From Escherichia coli (GTDB lineage: Bacteria; Pseudomonadota; Gammaproteobacteria; Enterobacterales; Enterobacteriaceae): 64,000 nucleotides of DNA. Each line of letters opens with the position of its first letter. Position 1 is the stretch's first letter. The notes under the pieces were generated by a model. That model was given only the letters and a program-made list of their open reading frames with translations, did not search any database and was not told the DNA's origin. The stretch lies in the NCBI RefSeq assembly GCF_003018255.1, contig NZ_CP027440.1; one strand, 5' to 3'. Below are positions 2,573 to 26,211 of the stretch, in pieces. The translations under genes were made by a program, and so were the position numbers.

Positions 2573-2659
2573 GGTGCGAGGGGGGGGACTTGAACCCCCA
2601 CGTCCGTAAGGACACTAACACCTGAAGCTAGCGCGTCTACCAATTCCGCCACCTTCGCA
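2573..2659 (-). tRNA. leuV: tRNA-Leu (CAG), copy 3 of 3
   Basis: Identical to copy 1; tandem array with short spacers. Confidence 0.93.
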
Positions 2660-2857
2660 TACCGTCAATTCTTAAAAAGAATTGCTACCACGGAGGCGCA
2701 TTCTAGTGGTTTTCAGCTTTTCGTCAATAGTTAATTATCGACAGAGGTGTAATTGCTGGAAAAATGTCCATCAGCGGATTGTGGATAATTCGTTTGTCGG
2801 TCAGATAAGGCGTGTACGCCGCATCCGACACGGTATGCGGCGATATATATCAGATAC

Positions 2858-3889
2858 TCAACCTTTCTTCGCCTGGCGGGTCATAATGGCGCGATACACC
2901 TTGAAGCGCCCGGTTTGCGCGATCACTTCGTGGAAGCCAAATGTCTCATCCAGCACGTCCGGATAAGGCAGGAAGGCGTTCGCTACAATTCGCAGCTCGC
3001 CGCCGCTATTAAGATGACGCACCGCGCCGCGAATCAGCGTTTGCGCGGCATCCAGGCTGGTTTGCATCCCATCGTGGAACGGCGGGTTGGAGATGATCAT
3101 ATCAAAACGACCTTTCACCTCGGAAAAGACGTTACTGGCAAAGACTTCACCTTCAACACCGTTGGCCGCAAGTGTTGCGCGGCTGGCTTCTACCGCTGGT
3201 GCAGAGACATCGCACAGAGTGAGACGAATTTTCGGCGAATGGCGCGCAAAGGCAACCGAAAGTACGCCCGCGCCACAGCCGACATCCAGCACTTTACCTT
3301 TCGTGTGCGGGGTTAACGTCGAGAGCAGCAACTGGCTACCGACATCCAGACCGTCGCGGCTAAACACGCCAGGCAGCGTTTTGACCGTCAGGCCATCGAC
3401 GCTGTATTCGCCCCAGAATTTATCGGCATCAAATACTGGCTGTTTTTCCAGACGACCAAAATAGAGGCCACAGCGACGAGCGCTGTCCATTTTATTCAAC
3501 GGCGCATAATCTGACAGCATCTGCTCGGCGCTGCGCACGCCGCTGCGGTTCTCGCCAACGACAAAAATATCCGTGCCCACTGGCAGCAGAGAAAGTAAAT
3601 TCATCAACTGGAACTGGGCTTCCGGTTTGTTCTTCGGCCAGTAGTAAATCAGCGTATCGCAATCTGCGACATCATCCGCCGTGGCGACCAGACTAAAACG
3701 GGCGTTATCCCCCATCTGGCGGCTTAACACCTGCCAGTGGTGGAATTGCTGGGTATGAGCACGGCTGGCCGCGGTATCTAAACGCGCGGGCAGGTCATCC
3801 TGTAAGTCTCCGGCAAAAAGAATACGGCTTTGTTCGAAATCATCACTGTGACGCAGCAAGACTTCACTTGCCGGGGTAAATGCAGACAT
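2858..3889 (-). CDS. rsmC: 16S rRNA (guanine1207-N2)-methyltransferase RsmC
   Basis: 343-aa ORF with SAM-binding motif ([11 protein letters not shown]) and NPPFH catalytic motif; synteny. Confidence 0.9.
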
Positions 3890-4834: not shown

Positions 4835-5512
4835 ATGAAGTGGGACTGGATTTTCTTTGATGCCGATGAAACGCTGTTTACCTTTGACTCATTCACCGGC
4901 TTGCAGCGGATGTTTCTTGATTACAGCGTCACCTTTACCGCTGAAGATTTTCAGGACTATCAGGCCGTTAACAAGCCACTGTGGGTGGATTATCAAAACG
5001 GCGCGATCACTTCATTACAGCTTCAGCACGGGCGGTTTGAGAGCTGGGCCGAACGGCTGAACGTCGAGCCGGGTAAACTCAACGAAGCCTTTATTAATGC
5101 GATGGCGGAAATCTGTACGCCACTGCCGGGCGCGGTTTCTCTGCTTAACGCCATTCGTGGCAACGCTAAAATTGGCATCATCACCAACGGCTTTAGCGCC
5201 TTGCAGCAAGTGCGTCTGGAACGCACGGGCCTGCGTGATTATTTCGATTTGCTGGTGATTTCCGAAGAAGTTGGCGTTGCCAAACCGAATAAGAAAATTT
5301 TCGATTATGCGCTGGAACAGGCAGGCAATCCTGACCGTTCACGTGTGCTGATGGTTGGCGACACAGCTGAGTCCGATATTCTCGGTGGCATCAACGCCGG
5401 GCTTGCGACCTGCTGGCTGAATGCGCACAATCGCGAGCAACCAGAAGGCATCGCGCCCACCTGGACCGTTTCTTCGTTGCACGAACTGGAGCAGCTCCTG
5501 TGTAAACACTGA
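4835..5512 (+). CDS. yjjG: HAD-family pyrimidine 5'-nucleotidase YjjG
   Basis: 225-aa ORF starting with the HAD motif I (FFDADETL). Confidence 0.88.
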
Positions 5513-22210: not shown

Positions 22211-23443
22211 ATGTCGTCATTTGATTACCTGAAAACTGCCATCAAGCAACAGGGCTGCACGCTACAGCAGGTCGCTGATGCCAGCGGTATGACCAAAGGG
22301 TATTTAAGCCAGTTACTGAATGCCAAAATTAAAAGCCCCAGCGCGCAAAAGCTGGAGGCGTTGCACCGTTTTTTGGGGCTTGAATTTCCCCGACAGAAGA
22401 AAACCATTGGTGTCGTATTCGGTAAGTTCTACCCGCTGCATACCGGACATATCTACCTTATCCAGCGCGCCTGTAGCCAGGTTGACGAGCTGCATATCAT
22501 TATGGGCTTTGACGATACCCGCGACCGCGCGTTGTTCGAAGACAGCGCCATGTCGCAGCAGCCCACGGTGCCGGATCGTCTGCGCTGGTTATTGCAAACC
22601 TTTAAATATCAGAAAAATATCCGTATTCATGCTTTCAATGAAGAGGGCATGGAGCCATATCCGCACGGCTGGGATGTATGGAGCAACGGCATCAAAAAGT
22701 TTATGGCTGAAAAGGGGATCCAGCCGGACCTGATCTACACCTCGGAAGAAGCCGATGCGCCACAGTATATGGAACATCTGGGGATCGAAACGGTGCTGGT
22801 CGATCCGAAACGCACCTTTATGAGTATCAGCGGTGCGCAGATCCGCGAAAACCCGTTCCGCTACTGGGAATATATCCCCACTGAAGTGAAGCCGTTTTTT
22901 GTGCGTACCGTGGCGATCCTTGGCGGCGAGTCGAGCGGTAAATCCACCCTGGTAAACAAACTTGCCAATATCTTCAATACCACCAGTGCGTGGGAATATG
23001 GTCGCGATTATGTCTTTTCACACCTCGGCGGTGATGAGATCGCATTGCAGTATTCCGACTACGATAAAATCGCGCTGGGACACGCACAATACATTGATTT
23101 TGCAGTGAAATATGCCAATAAAGTGGCGTTTATCGACACTGATTTTGTCACTACCCAGGCGTTCTGCAAAAAGTACGAAGGGCGGGAGCATCCGTTCGTG
23201 CAGGCGCTGATCGATGAATACCGTTTTGATCTGGTTATCTTGCTGGAGAACAACACCCCTTGGGTGGCGGATGGTTTACGCAGCCTCGGCAGTTCGGTGG
23301 ATCGCAAAGAGTTCCAGAACTTGCTGGTGGAGATGCTGGAAGAGAACAATATCGAATTTGTGCGGGTTGAAGAAGACGATTATGACAGCCGTTTCCTGCG
23401 CTGCGTGGAGCTGGTGCGGGAGATGATGGGGGAGCAAAGATAA
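22211..23443 (+). CDS. nadR: Trifunctional NadR (HTH repressor / NMN adenylyltransferase / ribosylnicotinamide kinase)
   Basis: 410-aa product; N-terminal HTH, HxGH-type nucleotidyltransferase motif (HTGHIYLI), Walker A GGESSGKST. Confidence 0.92.
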   Translation: MSSFDYLKTAIKQQGCTLQQVADASGMTKGYLSQLLNAKIKSPSAQKLEALHRFLGLEFPRQKKTIGVVFGKFYPLHTGHIYLIQRACSQVDELHIIMGFDDTRDRALFEDSAMSQQPTVPDRLRWLLQTFKYQKNIRIHAFNEEGMEPYPHGWDVWSNGIKKFMAEKGIQPDLIYTSEEADAPQYMEHLGIETVLVDPKRTFMSISGAQIRENPFRYWEYIPTEVKPFFVRTVAILGGESSGKSTLVNKLANIFNTTSAWEYGRDYVFSHLGGDEIALQYSDYDKIALGHAQYIDFAVKYANKVAFIDTDFVTTQAFCKKYEGREHPFVQALIDEYRFDLVILLENNTPWVADGLRSLGSSVDRKEFQNLLVEMLEENNIEFVRVEEDDYDSRFLRCVELVREMMGEQR

Positions 23444-23534
23444 TCATCTTTATAAGATGTTGAGTGGGATTACTGATTCAAAAGTGTACTTAGTACTCCA
23501 TTTTGGTGTACAATGTACCTTCCAGGGAGGGGTA

Positions 23535-23867
23535 ATGGGTAAGGCGATAATATTTATAGAGACGCCAATGTTTACGCGTCAGATCAAGCAGATTGCAACC
23601 GATGATGAATTAAAGGAATTACAAAAAGAACTCATCGGAACTCCCGATAAAGGTGATCTCATTCAGCAGACTGGTGGATTGCGTAAAGTCCGAATGGCTG
23701 CGGGTTCACAGGGAAAAAGTGGCAGTGTCAGAATAATTTACTTTCTGGCGACGGAAGAGATTATTTATTTGATTATGGCCTATCCGAAAAATGCCAAAGA
23801 TAGTCTGACAGATACGGAAAAAGCTCAACTAAAGAAGTTGACGAAACTGCTCAAAGGCGAGATATAA
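23535..23867 (+). CDS. Type II toxin, RelE/ParE superfamily, HigB-2-like (strain-specific insertion)
   Basis: 110-aa ORF with strong RBS gggagggg; core GDLIQQTGGLRKVRMA...GSVRIIYFL...YLIMAYPKNAKDSL resembles HigB-2-type toxins as I recall them; toxin-first order with an adjacent HTH antitoxin. Confidence 0.7.
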   Translation: MGKAIIFIETPMFTRQIKQIATDDELKELQKELIGTPDKGDLIQQTGGLRKVRMAAGSQGKSGSVRIIYFLATEEIIYLIMAYPKNAKDSLTDTEKAQLKKLTKLLKGEI

Positions 23868-23868
23868 A

Positions 23869-24153
23869 ATGAGTTTTTTTGATGAGTTGAAAACCTCTCT
23901 GGAAGAGGCTGTCGAGATTAAACAAGGTTTAAAAGAACCTGCACGGGTGACCCGCTACGAAATTGCGGATGTTAAAGCTATTCGTGAGCAACTCAACGTT
24001 TCGCAAAGTGAGATGGCAAAAGCTCTGGGAACCAGTGTGGATACCATTAAAAGCTGGGAATCGAAGCGAAGAAATCCTACGGGATTGGCTGCAAAAGTAC
24101 TTGCCACAATTAAAGAAAATCCTGACTTTTTCCGGGAACTTGCCTCCCATTAA
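23869..24153 (+). CDS. Type II antitoxin, XRE-type HTH, HigA-2-like
   Basis: 94-aa ORF starting 1 nt after the toxin stop; HTH segment SQSEMAKALGTSVDTIKSWE. Confidence 0.7.
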   Translation: MSFFDELKTSLEEAVEIKQGLKEPARVTRYEIADVKAIREQLNVSQSEMAKALGTSVDTIKSWESKRRNPTGLAAKVLATIKENPDFFRELASH

Positions 24154-24167
24154 TCATTTAACTAATA

Positions 24168-24197
24168 CCGGATGCGATGCTGGCGCGCCGCATCCGG
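24168..24197. repeat. REP-like palindrome between the TA pair and ettA
   Basis: ccggatgcgatgctggcgcgccgcatccgg inverted repeat. Confidence 0.5.
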
Positions 24198-24208
24198 CAT
24201 TTTACGCA

Positions 24209-25876
24209 TTACTTCGCAATACGCTTGTACTTGATACGCTTCGGCTCCAGCGCGTCTGCGCCCAGCGTGCGTTTCTTGTACTCTTCGTACTCGGTAAAGT
24301 TACCTTCGAAGAACTCAACTTTACCCTCATCCTGGTAATCCAGGATGTGCGTGGCGATACGGTCGAGGAACCAACGGTCGTGCGAGATAACCATCGCGCA
24401 GCCCGGGAACTCCAGCAGGGCGTTTTCCAGCGCGCGCAGGGTTTCGATATCCAGGTCGTTGGTTGGTTCGTCGAGCAGCAGCATGTTGCCGCCAACTTGC
24501 AGCAACTTCGCCAGATGCAGACGACCGCGCTCACCGCCGGAGAGTTCGCCAACGCGTTTACCCTGATCAACCCCTTTAAAGTTAAAGCGGCCAACGTAGG
24601 CGCGGCTTGGCATCTCGGTGTTGCCGATTTTCATGATATCCAGCCCGCCGGAAACTTCTTCCCAAACGGTTTTGCTGTTATCCATTGAGTCACGGAACTG
24701 ATCAACCGATGCCAGTTTCACCGTTTCACCCAAAGTGATGGTGCCGCTGTCCGGCTGTTCCTGACCAGAGATCATACGGAACAGCGTCGATTTACCCGCA
24801 CCGTTCGGACCGATGATCCCGACGATCGCCCCTTTCGGGATCGAGAAACTCAGGGAGTCAATCAGCAGACGATCGCCATAGGATTTACGCAGATTGCTGA
24901 CTTCCAGCACTTTGTCGCCCAGACGCGGTCCAGGTGGAATAAACAGTTCGTTGGTTTCGTTACGTTTCTGATATTCGGTGCTGTTCAGTTCTTCAAAGCG
25001 CGCCAGACGTGCTTTACCTTTCGACTGACGGCCTTTAGTACCTTGACGTACCCACTCCAGCTCTTTCTCAATCGACTTACGACGCGCAGCTTCTTGTGAA
25101 GCTTCCTGCGCCAGACGCTGATCTTTCTGCTCCAGCCAGGAGGAGTAGTTACCTTCCCACGGAATACCTTCACCGCGGTCCAGTTCGAGGATCCAGCCCG
25201 CAACGTTATCGAGGAAGTAACGGTCGTGGGTAATCGCCACAACGGTGCCTTCGAAGTCGTGCAGGAAGCGTTCCAGCCAGGCCACGGATTCGGCATCCAG
25301 GTGGTTGGTCGGTTCGTCGAGCAGCAGCATGTCTGGTTTTTCCAGCAGCAGGCGGCACAACGCCACGCGACGACGCTCACCACCGGAGAGGTTAGCGATT
25401 TTCGCGTCCCAATCCGGCAGACGCAGCGCATCCGCCGCACGCTCCAGCTGAACGTTCAGGTTGTGACCGTCGTGAGCCTGAATGATCTCTTCCAGACGGC
25501 CCTGTTCAGCGGCCAGTTTGTCAAAATCGGCATCCGGATCGGCGTACAGTGCATACACTTCATCCAGGCGTTTCAGGGCGTTAACCACTTCAGAAACCGC
25601 TTCTTCAATGGACTCACGCACGGTGTGTTCCGGGTTCAACTGCGGTTCCTGCGGCAGATAACCAATCTTGATATCCGGTTGCGGACGCGCTTCGCCTTCG
25701 ATGTCTTTATCAATGCCCGCCATAATGCGCAGCAGGGTGGACTTACCCGCGCCGTTCAGACCCAGGACACCAATTTTTGCCCCAGGGAAGAAACTCAGAG
25801 AGATGTTTTTCAAAATATGACGTTTCGGCGGAACAACTTTGCCGACACGATGCATGGTATAAACGAATTGAGCCAC
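24209..25876 (-). CDS. ettA: Energy-dependent translational throttle protein EttA (ABC-F ATPase, YjjK)
   Basis: 555-aa ORF with two ABC cassettes (Walker A GLNGAGKST and GPNGAGKST, signature LSGGE twice). Confidence 0.93.
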   Translation of the reverse strand: MAQFVYTMHRVGKVVPPKRHILKNISLSFFPGAKIGVLGLNGAGKSTLLRIMAGIDKDIEGEARPQPDIKIGYLPQEPQLNPEHTVRESIEEAVSEVVNALKRLDEVYALYADPDADFDKLAAEQGRLEEIIQAHDGHNLNVQLERAADALRLPDWDAKIANLSGGERRRVALCRLLLEKPDMLLLDEPTNHLDAESVAWLERFLHDFEGTVVAITHDRYFLDNVAGWILELDRGEGIPWEGNYSSWLEQKDQRLAQEASQEAARRKSIEKELEWVRQGTKGRQSKGKARLARFEELNSTEYQKRNETNELFIPPGPRLGDKVLEVSNLRKSYGDRLLIDSLSFSIPKGAIVGIIGPNGAGKSTLFRMISGQEQPDSGTITLGETVKLASVDQFRDSMDNSKTVWEEVSGGLDIMKIGNTEMPSRAYVGRFNFKGVDQGKRVGELSGGERGRLHLAKLLQVGGNMLLLDEPTNDLDIETLRALENALLEFPGCAMVISHDRWFLDRIATHILDYQDEGKVEFFEGNFTEYEEYKKRTLGADALEPKRIKYKRIAK

Positions 25877-26211
25877 GTTGGACTTCGCCTCTATGTTTAT
25901 CGTGATGATGAGTTTTCAAAGGCGAAGTGTAGCCTGTTTCCTTATCTAATCCCAGCCGGTCGATCACCCTCGCAGTATACTCGTCATACTTCAAGTTGCA
26001 TGTGCTGCGCTTACGCTCGCTCACCCCAGTCACTTACTTCTGTAAGCTCCTGGGGACTCACTCACTTATCGCCTTCCTGCAACTCGAATTATTTAGAGTA
26101 TAAAAGTAAAAAAGTGTCCGTAACGTGGCGTAAACGGCAATGACTGGTTAGCATAAATCTATTACGCGGCATGACGCTGCATTGATGTATTTACACTTAG
26201 AGGATGCGCTT

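Follow-up and report, generated by a model that had tools for sequence, protein, structure and literature searches.

A predicted HigB2-type toxin-antitoxin operon between nadR and ettA of Escherichia coli and its remnants in K-12

The spacer between nadR and ettA of Escherichia coli raises a question of gain or loss. In the window (the whole 64-kb stretch of E. coli DNA that was analysed), it measures 765 bp (23444..24208), from the end of nadR at 23443 to the edge of ettA at 24209, as the first-pass annotation had stated, and exceeds that of K-12 by 458 bp. The K-12 spacer, put there at about 330 bp, is actually 307 bp (computed; also PMC7232551). Two genes occupy the longer spacer, so what do they encode, and did K-12 ever possess them? 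The cassette itself is already known, since the pair is annotated by PGAP and was described as TA30 in a 2020 paper (PMC7232551); as a discovery it matters little, and the finding is ordinary.

The nadR-ettA interval and its two genes

The features considered here are the following.
22211..23443, plus strand: nadR, left flank outside the cassette (ORF list and RefSeq annotation of the identical genome)
23444..23534, plus strand: promoter/operator region and 5' leader of the predicted toxin-antitoxin operon (sequence; 3 of 91 nt differ from the B2-type allele)
23446..23838, plus strand: segment missing in all toxin-less alleles, including K-12, comprising promoter, operator and the first ~101 toxin codons (alignments)
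23486..23496, no strand assigned: putative distal operator palindrome GTACTTAGTAC, overlying a weak -35 position (sequence)
23507..23519, no strand assigned: putative proximal operator palindrome GGTACAATGTACC, with its GTAC-N3-GTAC core at 23508..23518, spanning a -10-like TACAAT
23525..23532, plus strand: Shine-Dalgarno-like GGGAGGGG for the toxin gene (sequence)
23535..23867, plus strand: toxin gene, 110 aa, PF06296 (HigB2 / 'PF_RelE'), predicted ribosome-dependent mRNA endonuclease (PDB and Pfam matches, residue alignment)
23869..24153, plus strand: antitoxin gene nadS, 94 aa, with a predicted N-terminal helix (~3-18), linker and XRE-type HTH (~35-92) (NCBIfam, PDB, Pfam, low-confidence AF2)
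24168..24198, no strand assigned: REP hairpin where the 3' ends of nadS and ettA converge (sequence, folding, allele alignments)
24209..25876, minus strand: ettA, right flank outside the cassette (ORF list and RefSeq annotation of the identical genome)

The two ORFs lie 1 nt apart where the first-pass annotation had placed them, coupled in the layout TAA-A-ATG, and the same two CDS are annotated in RefSeq for the identical genome. The cassette is, as was also claimed, AT-rich relative to its surroundings (G+C 0.41-0.44 vs 0.50-0.57 in the flanks). The REP palindrome reported at its right edge was recovered as a hairpin at 24168..24197 (-20.9 kcal/mol, z = -3.0), which contains, on the minus strand, the REP head GCCGGATGCGGCG; this head occurs seven times in the window against 0.28 expected, and the right arm of the hairpin is common to all alleles at the locus. 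A search of Rfam over 23300..24400 returned zero RNA families at E values up to 0.1.

The toxin ORF begins with ATG at 23535. An upstream in-frame ATG at 23457, which would give a 136-aa ORF, was rejected as the start because translation from there would cross the operator, homologues start at the position of 23535, and RefSeq gives 110 aa. Protein search bore out the proposed resemblance to HigB-2, matching the V. cholerae HigB-2 structures over 97 residues (6-102) at E 8e-17 and 38% identity, and PF06296 (5.9e-10) was the sole significant Pfam family. Residues R53, R66, Y83 and K85 align with the catalytic R51, R64, Y82 and K84 of VcHigB2 and are invariant in 16 homologues; alanine at any of these four positions cripples VcHigB2 (PMC5416850). 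Activity of VcHigB2 also depends in part on its beta2-beta3 loop (PMC5416850), which is less basic in the toxin studied here. The ParE family PF05016 was absent from the toxin's Pfam results, and neither protein matched PF05015 or PF09907 / TIGR02607 (Rts1-type HigB/HigA) in the Pfam/NCBIfam results. The family label of PMC7232551 is thus corrected from ParE to HigB2/PF06296, a predicted mRNase. The AF2 model of the toxin (pLDDT 54.8), built from a shallow alignment of 15-16 sequences that are all at least 77% identical, has a strand, two helices, three strands and a C-terminal helix, and the order of elements in this low-confidence model is compatible with a BECR/RelE fold; Foldseek against PDB with it returned only noise (best E 0.69). 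The fold of the toxin is therefore taken from its similarity to solved structures, and no structural conclusion is drawn from the low-pLDDT AF2 models.

NadS matches the NCBIfam equivalog NF041265 along its full length (1.3e-54, 182.5 bits with a cut-off of 60, residues 1-94 on profile 1-94). Its description as an XRE-HTH antitoxin resembling HigA-2 also held, with a PDB match to HigA-2 at E 9e-7 and 33% identity over residues 33-92 and a Pfam HTH_3 match at 6e-10. Residues 1-32 gave no significant alignment to the neutralising segment of VcHigA2. The NadS N-terminus is strongly conserved among NadS proteins, and AF2 (pLDDT 62.5, shallow alignment of 15-16 sequences) predicts that residues 3-18 are helical and, at low confidence, that 26-32 form a linker. 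Cysteine is absent from the protein. As well, the name NadS is positional, and no link to NAD metabolism was seen here.

Promoter and putative operator

The first-pass annotation had described two GTAC-N3-GTAC palindromes, GTACTTAGTAC at 23486..23496 and GTACAATGTAC at 23508..23518, with a -10-like TACAAT under the second. All are present, the hexamer at 23509..23514. The two palindromes are the only GTAC-N3-GTAC matches in the window (0.28 expected from shuffles, among which two were reached in 4 of 100), and both are unchanged between the window and the B2-type allele. The corresponding -35 would be TGTACT at 23485..23490, which is weak and lies 18 nt upstream of the -10, and transcription would be expected to begin near 23521. 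Because of this weak -35, a generic sigma-70 promoter/terminator scan left the proposed promoter uncalled; the sites it called in total were no more than in shuffles.

The palindrome recurs well beyond E. coli. Among 80 relatives from other genera, collected by a scan of genome contigs, 71 have a toxin gene closely preceded by GTAC-N3-GTAC, and the motif has 77 matches in 8.8 kb of upstream regions vs 5 in 438 kb elsewhere, a ~770-fold enrichment that lends strong comparative support to the idea, raised in the first pass, of an autorepression operator. The consensus across homologous cassettes is gGT-GTAC-(t/a)AT-GTAC-aC, with the central triplet restricted to (T/A)AT so that a TAC(T/A)AT hexamer results, and in six related loci another site precedes the first by 19-22 bp. 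That the motif gGT-GTAC-wAT-GTAC-aC is shared by this cassette family across Gammaproteobacteria goes beyond the papers we read. Binding of the Vibrio operator is not simply transferable to NadS, since it differs from VcHigA2 at three of the four base-contacting residues and the GTAC cores are spaced by 3 nt here vs 9 nt in the VcHigA2 operator.

Remnants in K-12 and the history of the cassette

Pieces of both ORFs survive at this locus in K-12, which contradicts what the first-pass annotation implied, namely that the cassette was gained and had never been in K-12. The 307-bp spacer of K-12 contains ~30 nt from the 3' end of the toxin gene and ~125 nt from the 5' end of nadS (codons 1-~41), and the remnant is 94% identical to the window cassette over 144 nt. 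The same two ORFs in K-12-like genomes had been named as the observation that would speak against an insertion; K-12 bears this out by half, with remnants in place of intact ORFs. PGAP annotates the stump as a 55-aa NadS, in which ~38-41 codons from the start of nadS survive; it has no HTH domain and ends in REP-derived residues.

One deletion junction is common to all toxin-less alleles examined. It is also found in an intermediate allele, L088, which has lost the toxin and still encodes full-length nadS. The remnants in K-12, together with this allele, point to a deletion and a REP/BIME replacement in the K-12 lineage as the probable source of the difference. Among 5426 complete E. coli genomes, the intact pair occurs in 672 (the segment deleted in K-12 is present; both ORFs are unbroken where alleles were examined), nadS at full length but no toxin in ~57, and a K-12-type stump in 3764, which belong to several lineages including O157:H7. 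A conserved function for the K-12 stump was largely rejected: four alleles were sampled within the most frequent identity band of K-12-type spacers, and in each the ATG has become ATA and a 1-nt deletion shifts the frame.

Such a clean decay series at a single locus is beyond the papers we read. It would also identify the small protein 'nadS' of K-12, recently reported as expressed, as the truncated antitoxin of a lost toxin-antitoxin pair, and 'pathogen-specific' or 'inserted' would therefore be misleading words for the cassette. We considered, as a long shot, that the stump is more than debris and that the 55-aa NadS of K-12 could act as an anti-addiction factor against the ~80%-identical HigB2-type toxins of small mobilizable plasmids. 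What is left in this protein is precisely the N-terminal portion, to which neutralisation of the toxin would fall if NadS works like HigA2. The stump lies 34 nt downstream of nadR, and translation of the 55-aa protein has been reported. If the idea were true, this NadS would have a say in which plasmids E. coli can stably maintain.

Relatives of the cassette suggest where it came from. A NadS homologue lies downstream of the toxin in 79 of the 80 related loci, within 2 nt of the toxin stop in 75 and at 55-56 nt in four. None of the 80 has nadR or ettA as a flank, and none comes from another Escherichia species. Toxins of ~80% identity occur in Yersinia, Citrobacter, Hafnia, Shigella and Klebsiella, on mobilizable plasmids of 4-7 kb, while the window cassette is only chromosomal in the E. 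coli collection (673 places on chromosomes, 0 on plasmids). An older foreign origin is therefore likely, given the low G+C, the plasmid-borne relatives and the lack of any relative from another genus at nadR-ettA. The polarity and the age of the original insertion are what we infer from these comparisons. No member of the E. coli collection falls below 93.5% in nadR, and the one divergent member of the NadR cluster led to an enterobacterium in which nadR and ettA are separated by two unrelated genes. A NadS whose sources include a record named 'Escherichia fergusonii' was rejected as an outgroup, since its contig flanks are 94-96% identical to the window, a divergence no greater than that between E. 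coli lineages.

Proposed mechanism, alternative readings and known systems

The locus is most probably an intact chromosomal type II toxin-antitoxin operon, composed of a HigB2/PF06296 toxin and NadS (HigA2-like, YiaG-related), with the following mechanism and decay history. The observed family membership, conservation of residues and operator, allele series and allele frequencies stand beside a mechanism taken by homology to V. cholerae HigBA2, so toxicity, RNA cleavage and DNA binding are attributed to the cassette proteins by analogy; the literature searched yielded no toxicity, cleavage or DNA-binding experiments on the cassette. Both genes would be transcribed from one promoter, whose -10 TACAAT lies inside the proximal palindrome, and would be translationally coupled through TAA-A-ATG. 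The NadS HTH would dimerise and bind both palindromes, 22 bp or two helical turns apart, thereby repressing the operon, and the N-terminal segment of NadS would wrap and neutralise the toxin. Upon depletion of NadS, free toxin would enter the ribosomal A site and cleave mRNA via R53/R66/Y83/K85. The cassette, foreign and plasmid-like in origin, would have been at nadR-ettA before the split of the window's, B2-type and K-12 lineages and would now be decaying, from the intact pair through a single deletion of toxin and promoter to replacement of the 3' half of nadS by REP/BIME (K-12), and then, after loss of the start codon and a frameshift, to REPs only.

A recent insertion into a K-12-like empty site that had never held the cassette is scarcely credible. 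The 458 bp of extra spacer and the low G+C would suit it, and K-12 is described as without these genes also in PMC7232551; moreover, synonymous divergence between the window and the B2-type allele is much lower in the cassette (5/135 sites) than in nadR+ettA (122/658; Fisher p = 2e-6), which fits a later exchange between lineages. The remnants of both genes in K-12, the shared junction of the L088 intermediate and the stump alleles in several lineages speak against it. It is very improbable as well that the toxin is a ParE-type DNA gyrase poison instead of an mRNA endonuclease: the 'ParE_toxin superfamily (cl21503)' assignment and the name ParE-3 come from PMC7232551, and RelE and ParE do have one fold in common, but the one significant Pfam family is PF06296, to which HigB2 belongs, a characterised enzyme that cleaves mRNA on the ribosome, and the RelE-like catalytic tetrad is conserved.

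We also weighed whether the cassette is an inert relic, with intact ORFs, an inactive toxin and NadS serving only as an orphan regulator. In its favour are the clear decay of the locus in most E. coli, a beta2-beta3 loop less basic than that of VcHigB2, and the 2 non-synonymous and 0 synonymous changes by which nadS differs from the B2-type allele, counts that are tiny; however, the toxin segment deleted in K-12 persists in 672 genomes, with unbroken ORFs where alleles were examined, no catalytic residue has been lost, the operator is preserved too, and the toxin has 1 non-synonymous vs 5 synonymous differences. The decay of the antitoxin once the toxin is lost suggests, furthermore, that the toxin keeps nadS under selection, and on these grounds an inert relic is unlikely. 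A main role in anti-phage abortive infection or in exclusion of related plasmids, in place of stress-induced growth control, concerns the biological role and is compatible with the proposed mechanism; we regard it as rather doubtful. Toxins of the RelE/ParE superfamily have been discussed as defence toxins (PMC11980606), close relatives reside on small plasmids, and each of the two proteins has a match among PHROG families without an assigned function (phrog_5869 at 8e-29 and phrog_2104 at 3.5e-22), which places relatives of both in phage genomes. Against this, PADLOC gave no meaningful match (weak generic CARF and HTH only, E 1e-5 or weaker), and the neighbouring genes are nadR, ettA, radA and slt, with no defence gene adjacent.

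Turning to known systems, the intact operon favoured here is the same cassette as TA30 parE-3/yiaG-2 of AIEC NRG857c and UPEC CFT073, which was presented as a 'genomic islet' and 'pathogen-associated'; position between nadR and ettA, gene lengths (333 and 285 bp) and gene order agree (PMC7232551). The two accounts differ in that the toxin was labelled ParE and K-12 was taken to be without the genes (PMC7232551), whereas the toxin belongs to PF06296/HigB2 and K-12 keeps a stump of both. Within the NadS family NF041265, the window protein is a full-length, full-score member, unlike the 55-aa K-12 nadS without its HTH.

V. cholerae HigB2/HigA2 (PDB 5JA8, 5JAA, 8A0X) is similar in its toxin-first order, 38% toxin identity, all four catalytic residues and an XRE HTH at the C-terminus of HigA2 that is 33% identical to window NadS. 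That pair resides in the superintegron and not beside nadR. HigA2 combines an N-terminal neutralising segment with its C-terminal HTH, while the N-terminal segment of NadS cannot be aligned with it; three of four base-contacting residues differ, and the beta2-beta3 loop of the window toxin is less basic. The VcHigA2 operator TGTACGC-N5-GCGTACA likewise carries TGTAC and runs over the -10 (PMC11006873), yet it is single, in contrast to the two GTAC-N3-GTAC sites of the window.

MqsR/MqsA is also toxin-first, the NadS HTH matches TIGR03830 (8e-10) and PF15731 (1e-4), and the MqsA operator AACCT-N3-AGGTT resembles that of the window in being short, palindromic and centred on 3 nt. However, NadS lacks the zinc-binding CxxC N-terminal domain, the toxin is outside the MqsR family, and NadS scores 38.6 bits against a TIGR03830 membership cut-off of 61.8, with only the HTH part aligned. 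Rts1 HigB/HigA (PF05015, TIGR02607) resembles the pair in no more than its gene order (toxin first) and the fold of the RelE/ParE superfamily, and gene order alone does not define a toxin-antitoxin family (PMC5416850). Finally, the plasmid-borne HigBA2 systems of Acinetobacter baumannii and of small enterobacterial plasmids have a toxin of the same family, the window copy being chromosomal, and experiments on A. baumannii HigBA2 have established that the antitoxin represses its own operon and that the toxin acts as corepressor (PMC5906591).

The gene pair between nadR and ettA

The nadR-ettA spacer holds two tightly coupled genes, and the open reading frames, their coordinates and the length of the spacer are as described in the first-pass annotation:

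nadR: ends at 23443, plus strand, left flank of the spacer
nadR-ettA spacer: 765 bp, between 23443 and 24209
Toxin ORF: 23535..23867, plus strand, 110 codons, ATG start, GGGAGGGG just 5'
nadS (antitoxin) ORF: 23869..24153, plus strand, 94 codons, begins 1 base past the toxin stop codon
ettA: 24209..25876, minus strand, right flank of the spacer

G+C content is 0.41-0.44 in the cassette against 0.50-0.57 in its flanks, in agreement with the AT-richness noted at first sight, and the REP palindrome reported at the right edge of the spacer is also present, with a canonical head GCCGGATGCGGCG on the minus strand (found seven times in the window, where 0.28 would be expected) and a folding energy of -20.9 kcal/mol. 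An Rfam search around the cassette (23300..24400) gave no match, and a PADLOC search of the cassette proteins returned nothing of note. In E. coli JNE23-011, which is 100% identical to the window in the cassette region, RefSeq annotates the pair as 'type II toxin-antitoxin system RelE/ParE family toxin' and 'nadS: NadS family protein'.

The cassette is already known, as annotation, because Bustamante and Vidal listed it as TA30, 'parE-3/yiaG-2', in AIEC NRG857c and UPEC CFT073 (PMC7232551), with gene lengths and intergenic position equal to those in the window. What is new here is the refinement of the toxin family to HigB2/PF06296 instead of ParE, the recognition of K-12 nadS as a stump of the cassette antitoxin, an allele series with frequencies, and a conserved operator motif. 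No toxicity, cleavage or DNA-binding test of the E. coli cassette was found in the literature searched.

The proposed HigB-2 likeness of the 110-aa ORF is borne out, as its residues 6-102 match solved chains of the Vibrio cholerae HigB-2 toxin (VcHigB2) at E 8e-17 with 38% identity, and the protein matches Pfam PF06296 at 5.9e-10. According to a 2025 survey of the superfamily, in which naming is inconsistent, HigB-2 is assigned to PF06296 ('PF_RelE') (PMC11980606). Hadzi et al. showed that alanine at Arg51, Arg64, Tyr82 or Lys84 cripples VcHigB2 (PMC5416850); in the HMMER alignment these residues correspond to R53, R66, Y83 and K85 of the window toxin, which are invariant across 16 aligned toxin homologues. 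AF2 models of both proteins were poor, and a fold search with the toxin model was uninformative. The 94-aa ORF matches the NadS equivalog profile over its full length at 182.5 bits (cut-off 60), and its residues 33-92 match the HTH domain of HigA-2, the V. cholerae antitoxin (E 9e-7, 33% identity), as expected of the HigA-2-like antitoxin first suggested. It matches MqsA and YiaG-type profiles too, with scores under their cut-offs.

We therefore regard the cassette as very probably a HigB2/NadS type II toxin-antitoxin operon. The fuller reading, which is probable, is that the pair is active: the toxin would be a ribosome-dependent mRNase neutralised by NadS, and GTAC palindromes upstream would be the site of operon autorepression. 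This mechanism would not conflict with a putative role in defence or against plasmids. The toxin is very improbably a ParE-type gyrase poison, since its Pfam search did not return the ParE family, and an inert relic is an unlikely description of the cassette. The Rts1-HigB family was likewise not among the Pfam matches.

Alleles of the spacer in E. coli

Among 5426 complete E. coli genomes, the nadR/ettA flanks are present in 5424, and window 23446..23838, which spans the promoter and the larger part of the toxin gene, in only 672, chromosomal in every case and including ST131, O18:H1, 83972 and clone D i2. A K-12-type spacer at a coverage of at least 80% occurs in 3764. TA30 has been termed a genomic islet, and the 307-bp region of K-12 and HS was described as 'lacking' both genes (PMC7232551). 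In K-12 (C600), the 307-bp spacer runs from the nadR stop through three bases (CCG) into the equivalent of window 23839 onward, keeping ~30 nt from the 3' end of the toxin gene, the region that couples the two genes and ~125 nt from the start of nadS at 94% identity, and then turns into REP/BIME sequence. The 55-aa ORF labelled nadS by PGAP in this locus (L001, 1078..1245) is chimeric, its first ~38-41 residues being the antitoxin N-terminus and its tail REP/BIME read-through. A PIRT-seq study gave the first evidence of K-12 nadS expression and reported the small protein as translated, the nature of nadS not being stated (PMC12350097).

In the commonest identity band of K-12-type alleles, all four sampled (L091-L094) carry ATG->ATA and a 1-nt deletion in a T-run, so the stump is a pseudogene in those alleles. 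Another spacer allele, of 120 bp, contains REPs only. In a further allele, L088, the toxin and promoter are gone at K-12's left junction, and nadS is complete with a window-type right end:

L088 nadS: 2627..2911 (Logan assembly ERR14102498), 94 codons, TTG start, 34 nt past nadR

The nadS 3' half is present in 729 genomes, and a toxin-less allele with full nadS thus appears in about 57 complete genomes (729 minus 672). The junction is common to the toxin-less alleles, which points to one deletion that would have taken toxin and promoter, after which the orphan antitoxin would have decayed step by step. Judged from this series, K-12 has evidently lost the cassette, and the window strain made no gain relative to K-12. 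The earlier description of the cassette as inserted relative to K-12 accordingly does not stand, because the K-12 spacer holds remnants of both genes and has its deletion junction in common with L088; the same remnants make it extremely improbable that the cassette recently entered an empty site.

Origin and possible exchange of the cassette

Scanning one genome per species yielded 80 related loci in Serratia, Pantoea, Xenorhabdus, Aeromonas, Halomonas and other genera, whose toxins share 66-82% identity with that of the window, and none of these loci has nadR or ettA beside it. Toxins of ~80% identity lie on 4-7 kb mobilizable plasmids of Yersinia ruckeri, Citrobacter, Pectobacterium, Hafnia, Serratia, Shigella boydii, Enterobacter and Klebsiella, and contigs of 4-7 kb also bear many of the genome-scan matches. 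Given these plasmid-borne relatives, the missing nadR/ettA flanks and the low G+C, the cassette is likely to have come from a foreign source at an earlier stage. The spacer is variable among enterics, since genes for a zinc-type alcohol dehydrogenase and a LysR-family regulator lie between nadR and ettA at 5234..7431 of L089 (GCA_045796565.1, an enterobacterium with NadR 92% identical), and it seems to have gained genes repeatedly. A GC-rich palindromic element, CCCTCTCCC...GGGAGAGGG, recurs on either side of these two L089 genes.

Compared with L085, a locus with a B2-type intact allele, the two cassette genes differ at 5/135 synonymous sites against 122/658 in nadR+ettA (Fisher p = 2e-6), a ~5-fold lower synonymous divergence (window 22211..25876), and total divergence dips over ~1.4 kb with the cassette at the centre. 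This would fit recombinational exchange of the cassette between E. coli lineages that had already split; however, the window strain's nadR differs unusually strongly from all comparators (pS 0.11-0.25), and we therefore treat the low divergence of the cassette as an unexplained observation, not a conclusion.

In the ettA-slt spacer, ~125 bp (25977..26101) are missing from L085. The segment includes CGCTCACCCCAGTCACTTACTT at 26017..26038, which equals the ERIC2 primer in reverse complement, and so looks like an ERIC/IRU element polymorphic between strains.

Upstream palindromes and proposed operon regulation

Both GTAC-N3-GTAC palindromes were found where first placed, at 23486 and 23508, the second containing TACAAT (23509..23514). 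They are the sole matches in the 64-kb window, where shuffling gives 0.28 expected and reached two in 4/100 shuffles. The motif lies within 110 nt 5' of the toxin start in 71/80 related loci, with 77 occurrences in 8.8 kb of upstream regions versus 5 in the remaining 438 kb (~770-fold enriched), and the sequence around it permits no alignment between genera. Its consensus, gGT-GTAC-(t/a)AT-GTAC-aC, is a 15-bp palindrome whose constrained centre yields TAC(T/A)AT, a good -10 hexamer. Paired sites are 19-22 bp apart in six related loci and 22 bp apart in the window. Through this enrichment and conservation, the palindromes are well supported by comparison as the candidate autorepression operator that had been proposed. 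The proposed cassette promoter was not among the sites called by a generic promoter scan.

A NadS homologue is downstream of the toxin in 79/80 related loci, with a gap of <=2 nt in 75 and 55-56 nt in four. The Lelliottia / Enterobacter cloacae group loci L026, L029, L034 and L039, in which GTAC-N3-GTAC is absent upstream, the toxin gene starts with ATG and 55-56 nt separate the two genes, are presumably regulated by a different arrangement. Across the relatives (L005-L084) the toxin start codon is mostly GTG, with few TTG, and is ATG in E. coli; a weak start may help to set the toxin:antitoxin ratio in this toxin-first family. Window 23705..23734 on the plus strand, internal to the toxin gene, resembles a promoter (TTCACA-18-CAGAAT, TG upstream) and could drive toxin-independent nadS transcription, the scan that found it yielding no more sites than in shuffles. 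In E. coli Z1323HEC0355 (NZ_CP148363.1), the cassette match begins only from base 35 of the query, equivalent to window ~23479/23480, and falls in two separate places, with an 'integrase core domain-containing protein' annotated. The pattern resembles insertion of an IS immediately 5' of the operator.

The footprinted operator of V. cholerae HigA-2 (VcHigA2), TGTACGC-N5-GCGTACA, reaches over the -10 (PMC11006873); it has the TGTAC core in common with the palindrome of this family and differs in spacing. The VcHigA2 base contacts R68, E71 and N72 correspond to D58, K61 and S62 of NadS, so that three of four contacts differ, and the fourth, R77, corresponds to the conserved R67. The MqsA site is AACCT-N3-AGGTT (PMC4894380), and the 4/5-N3-4/5 geometry of the site matches MqsA rather than VcHigA2.
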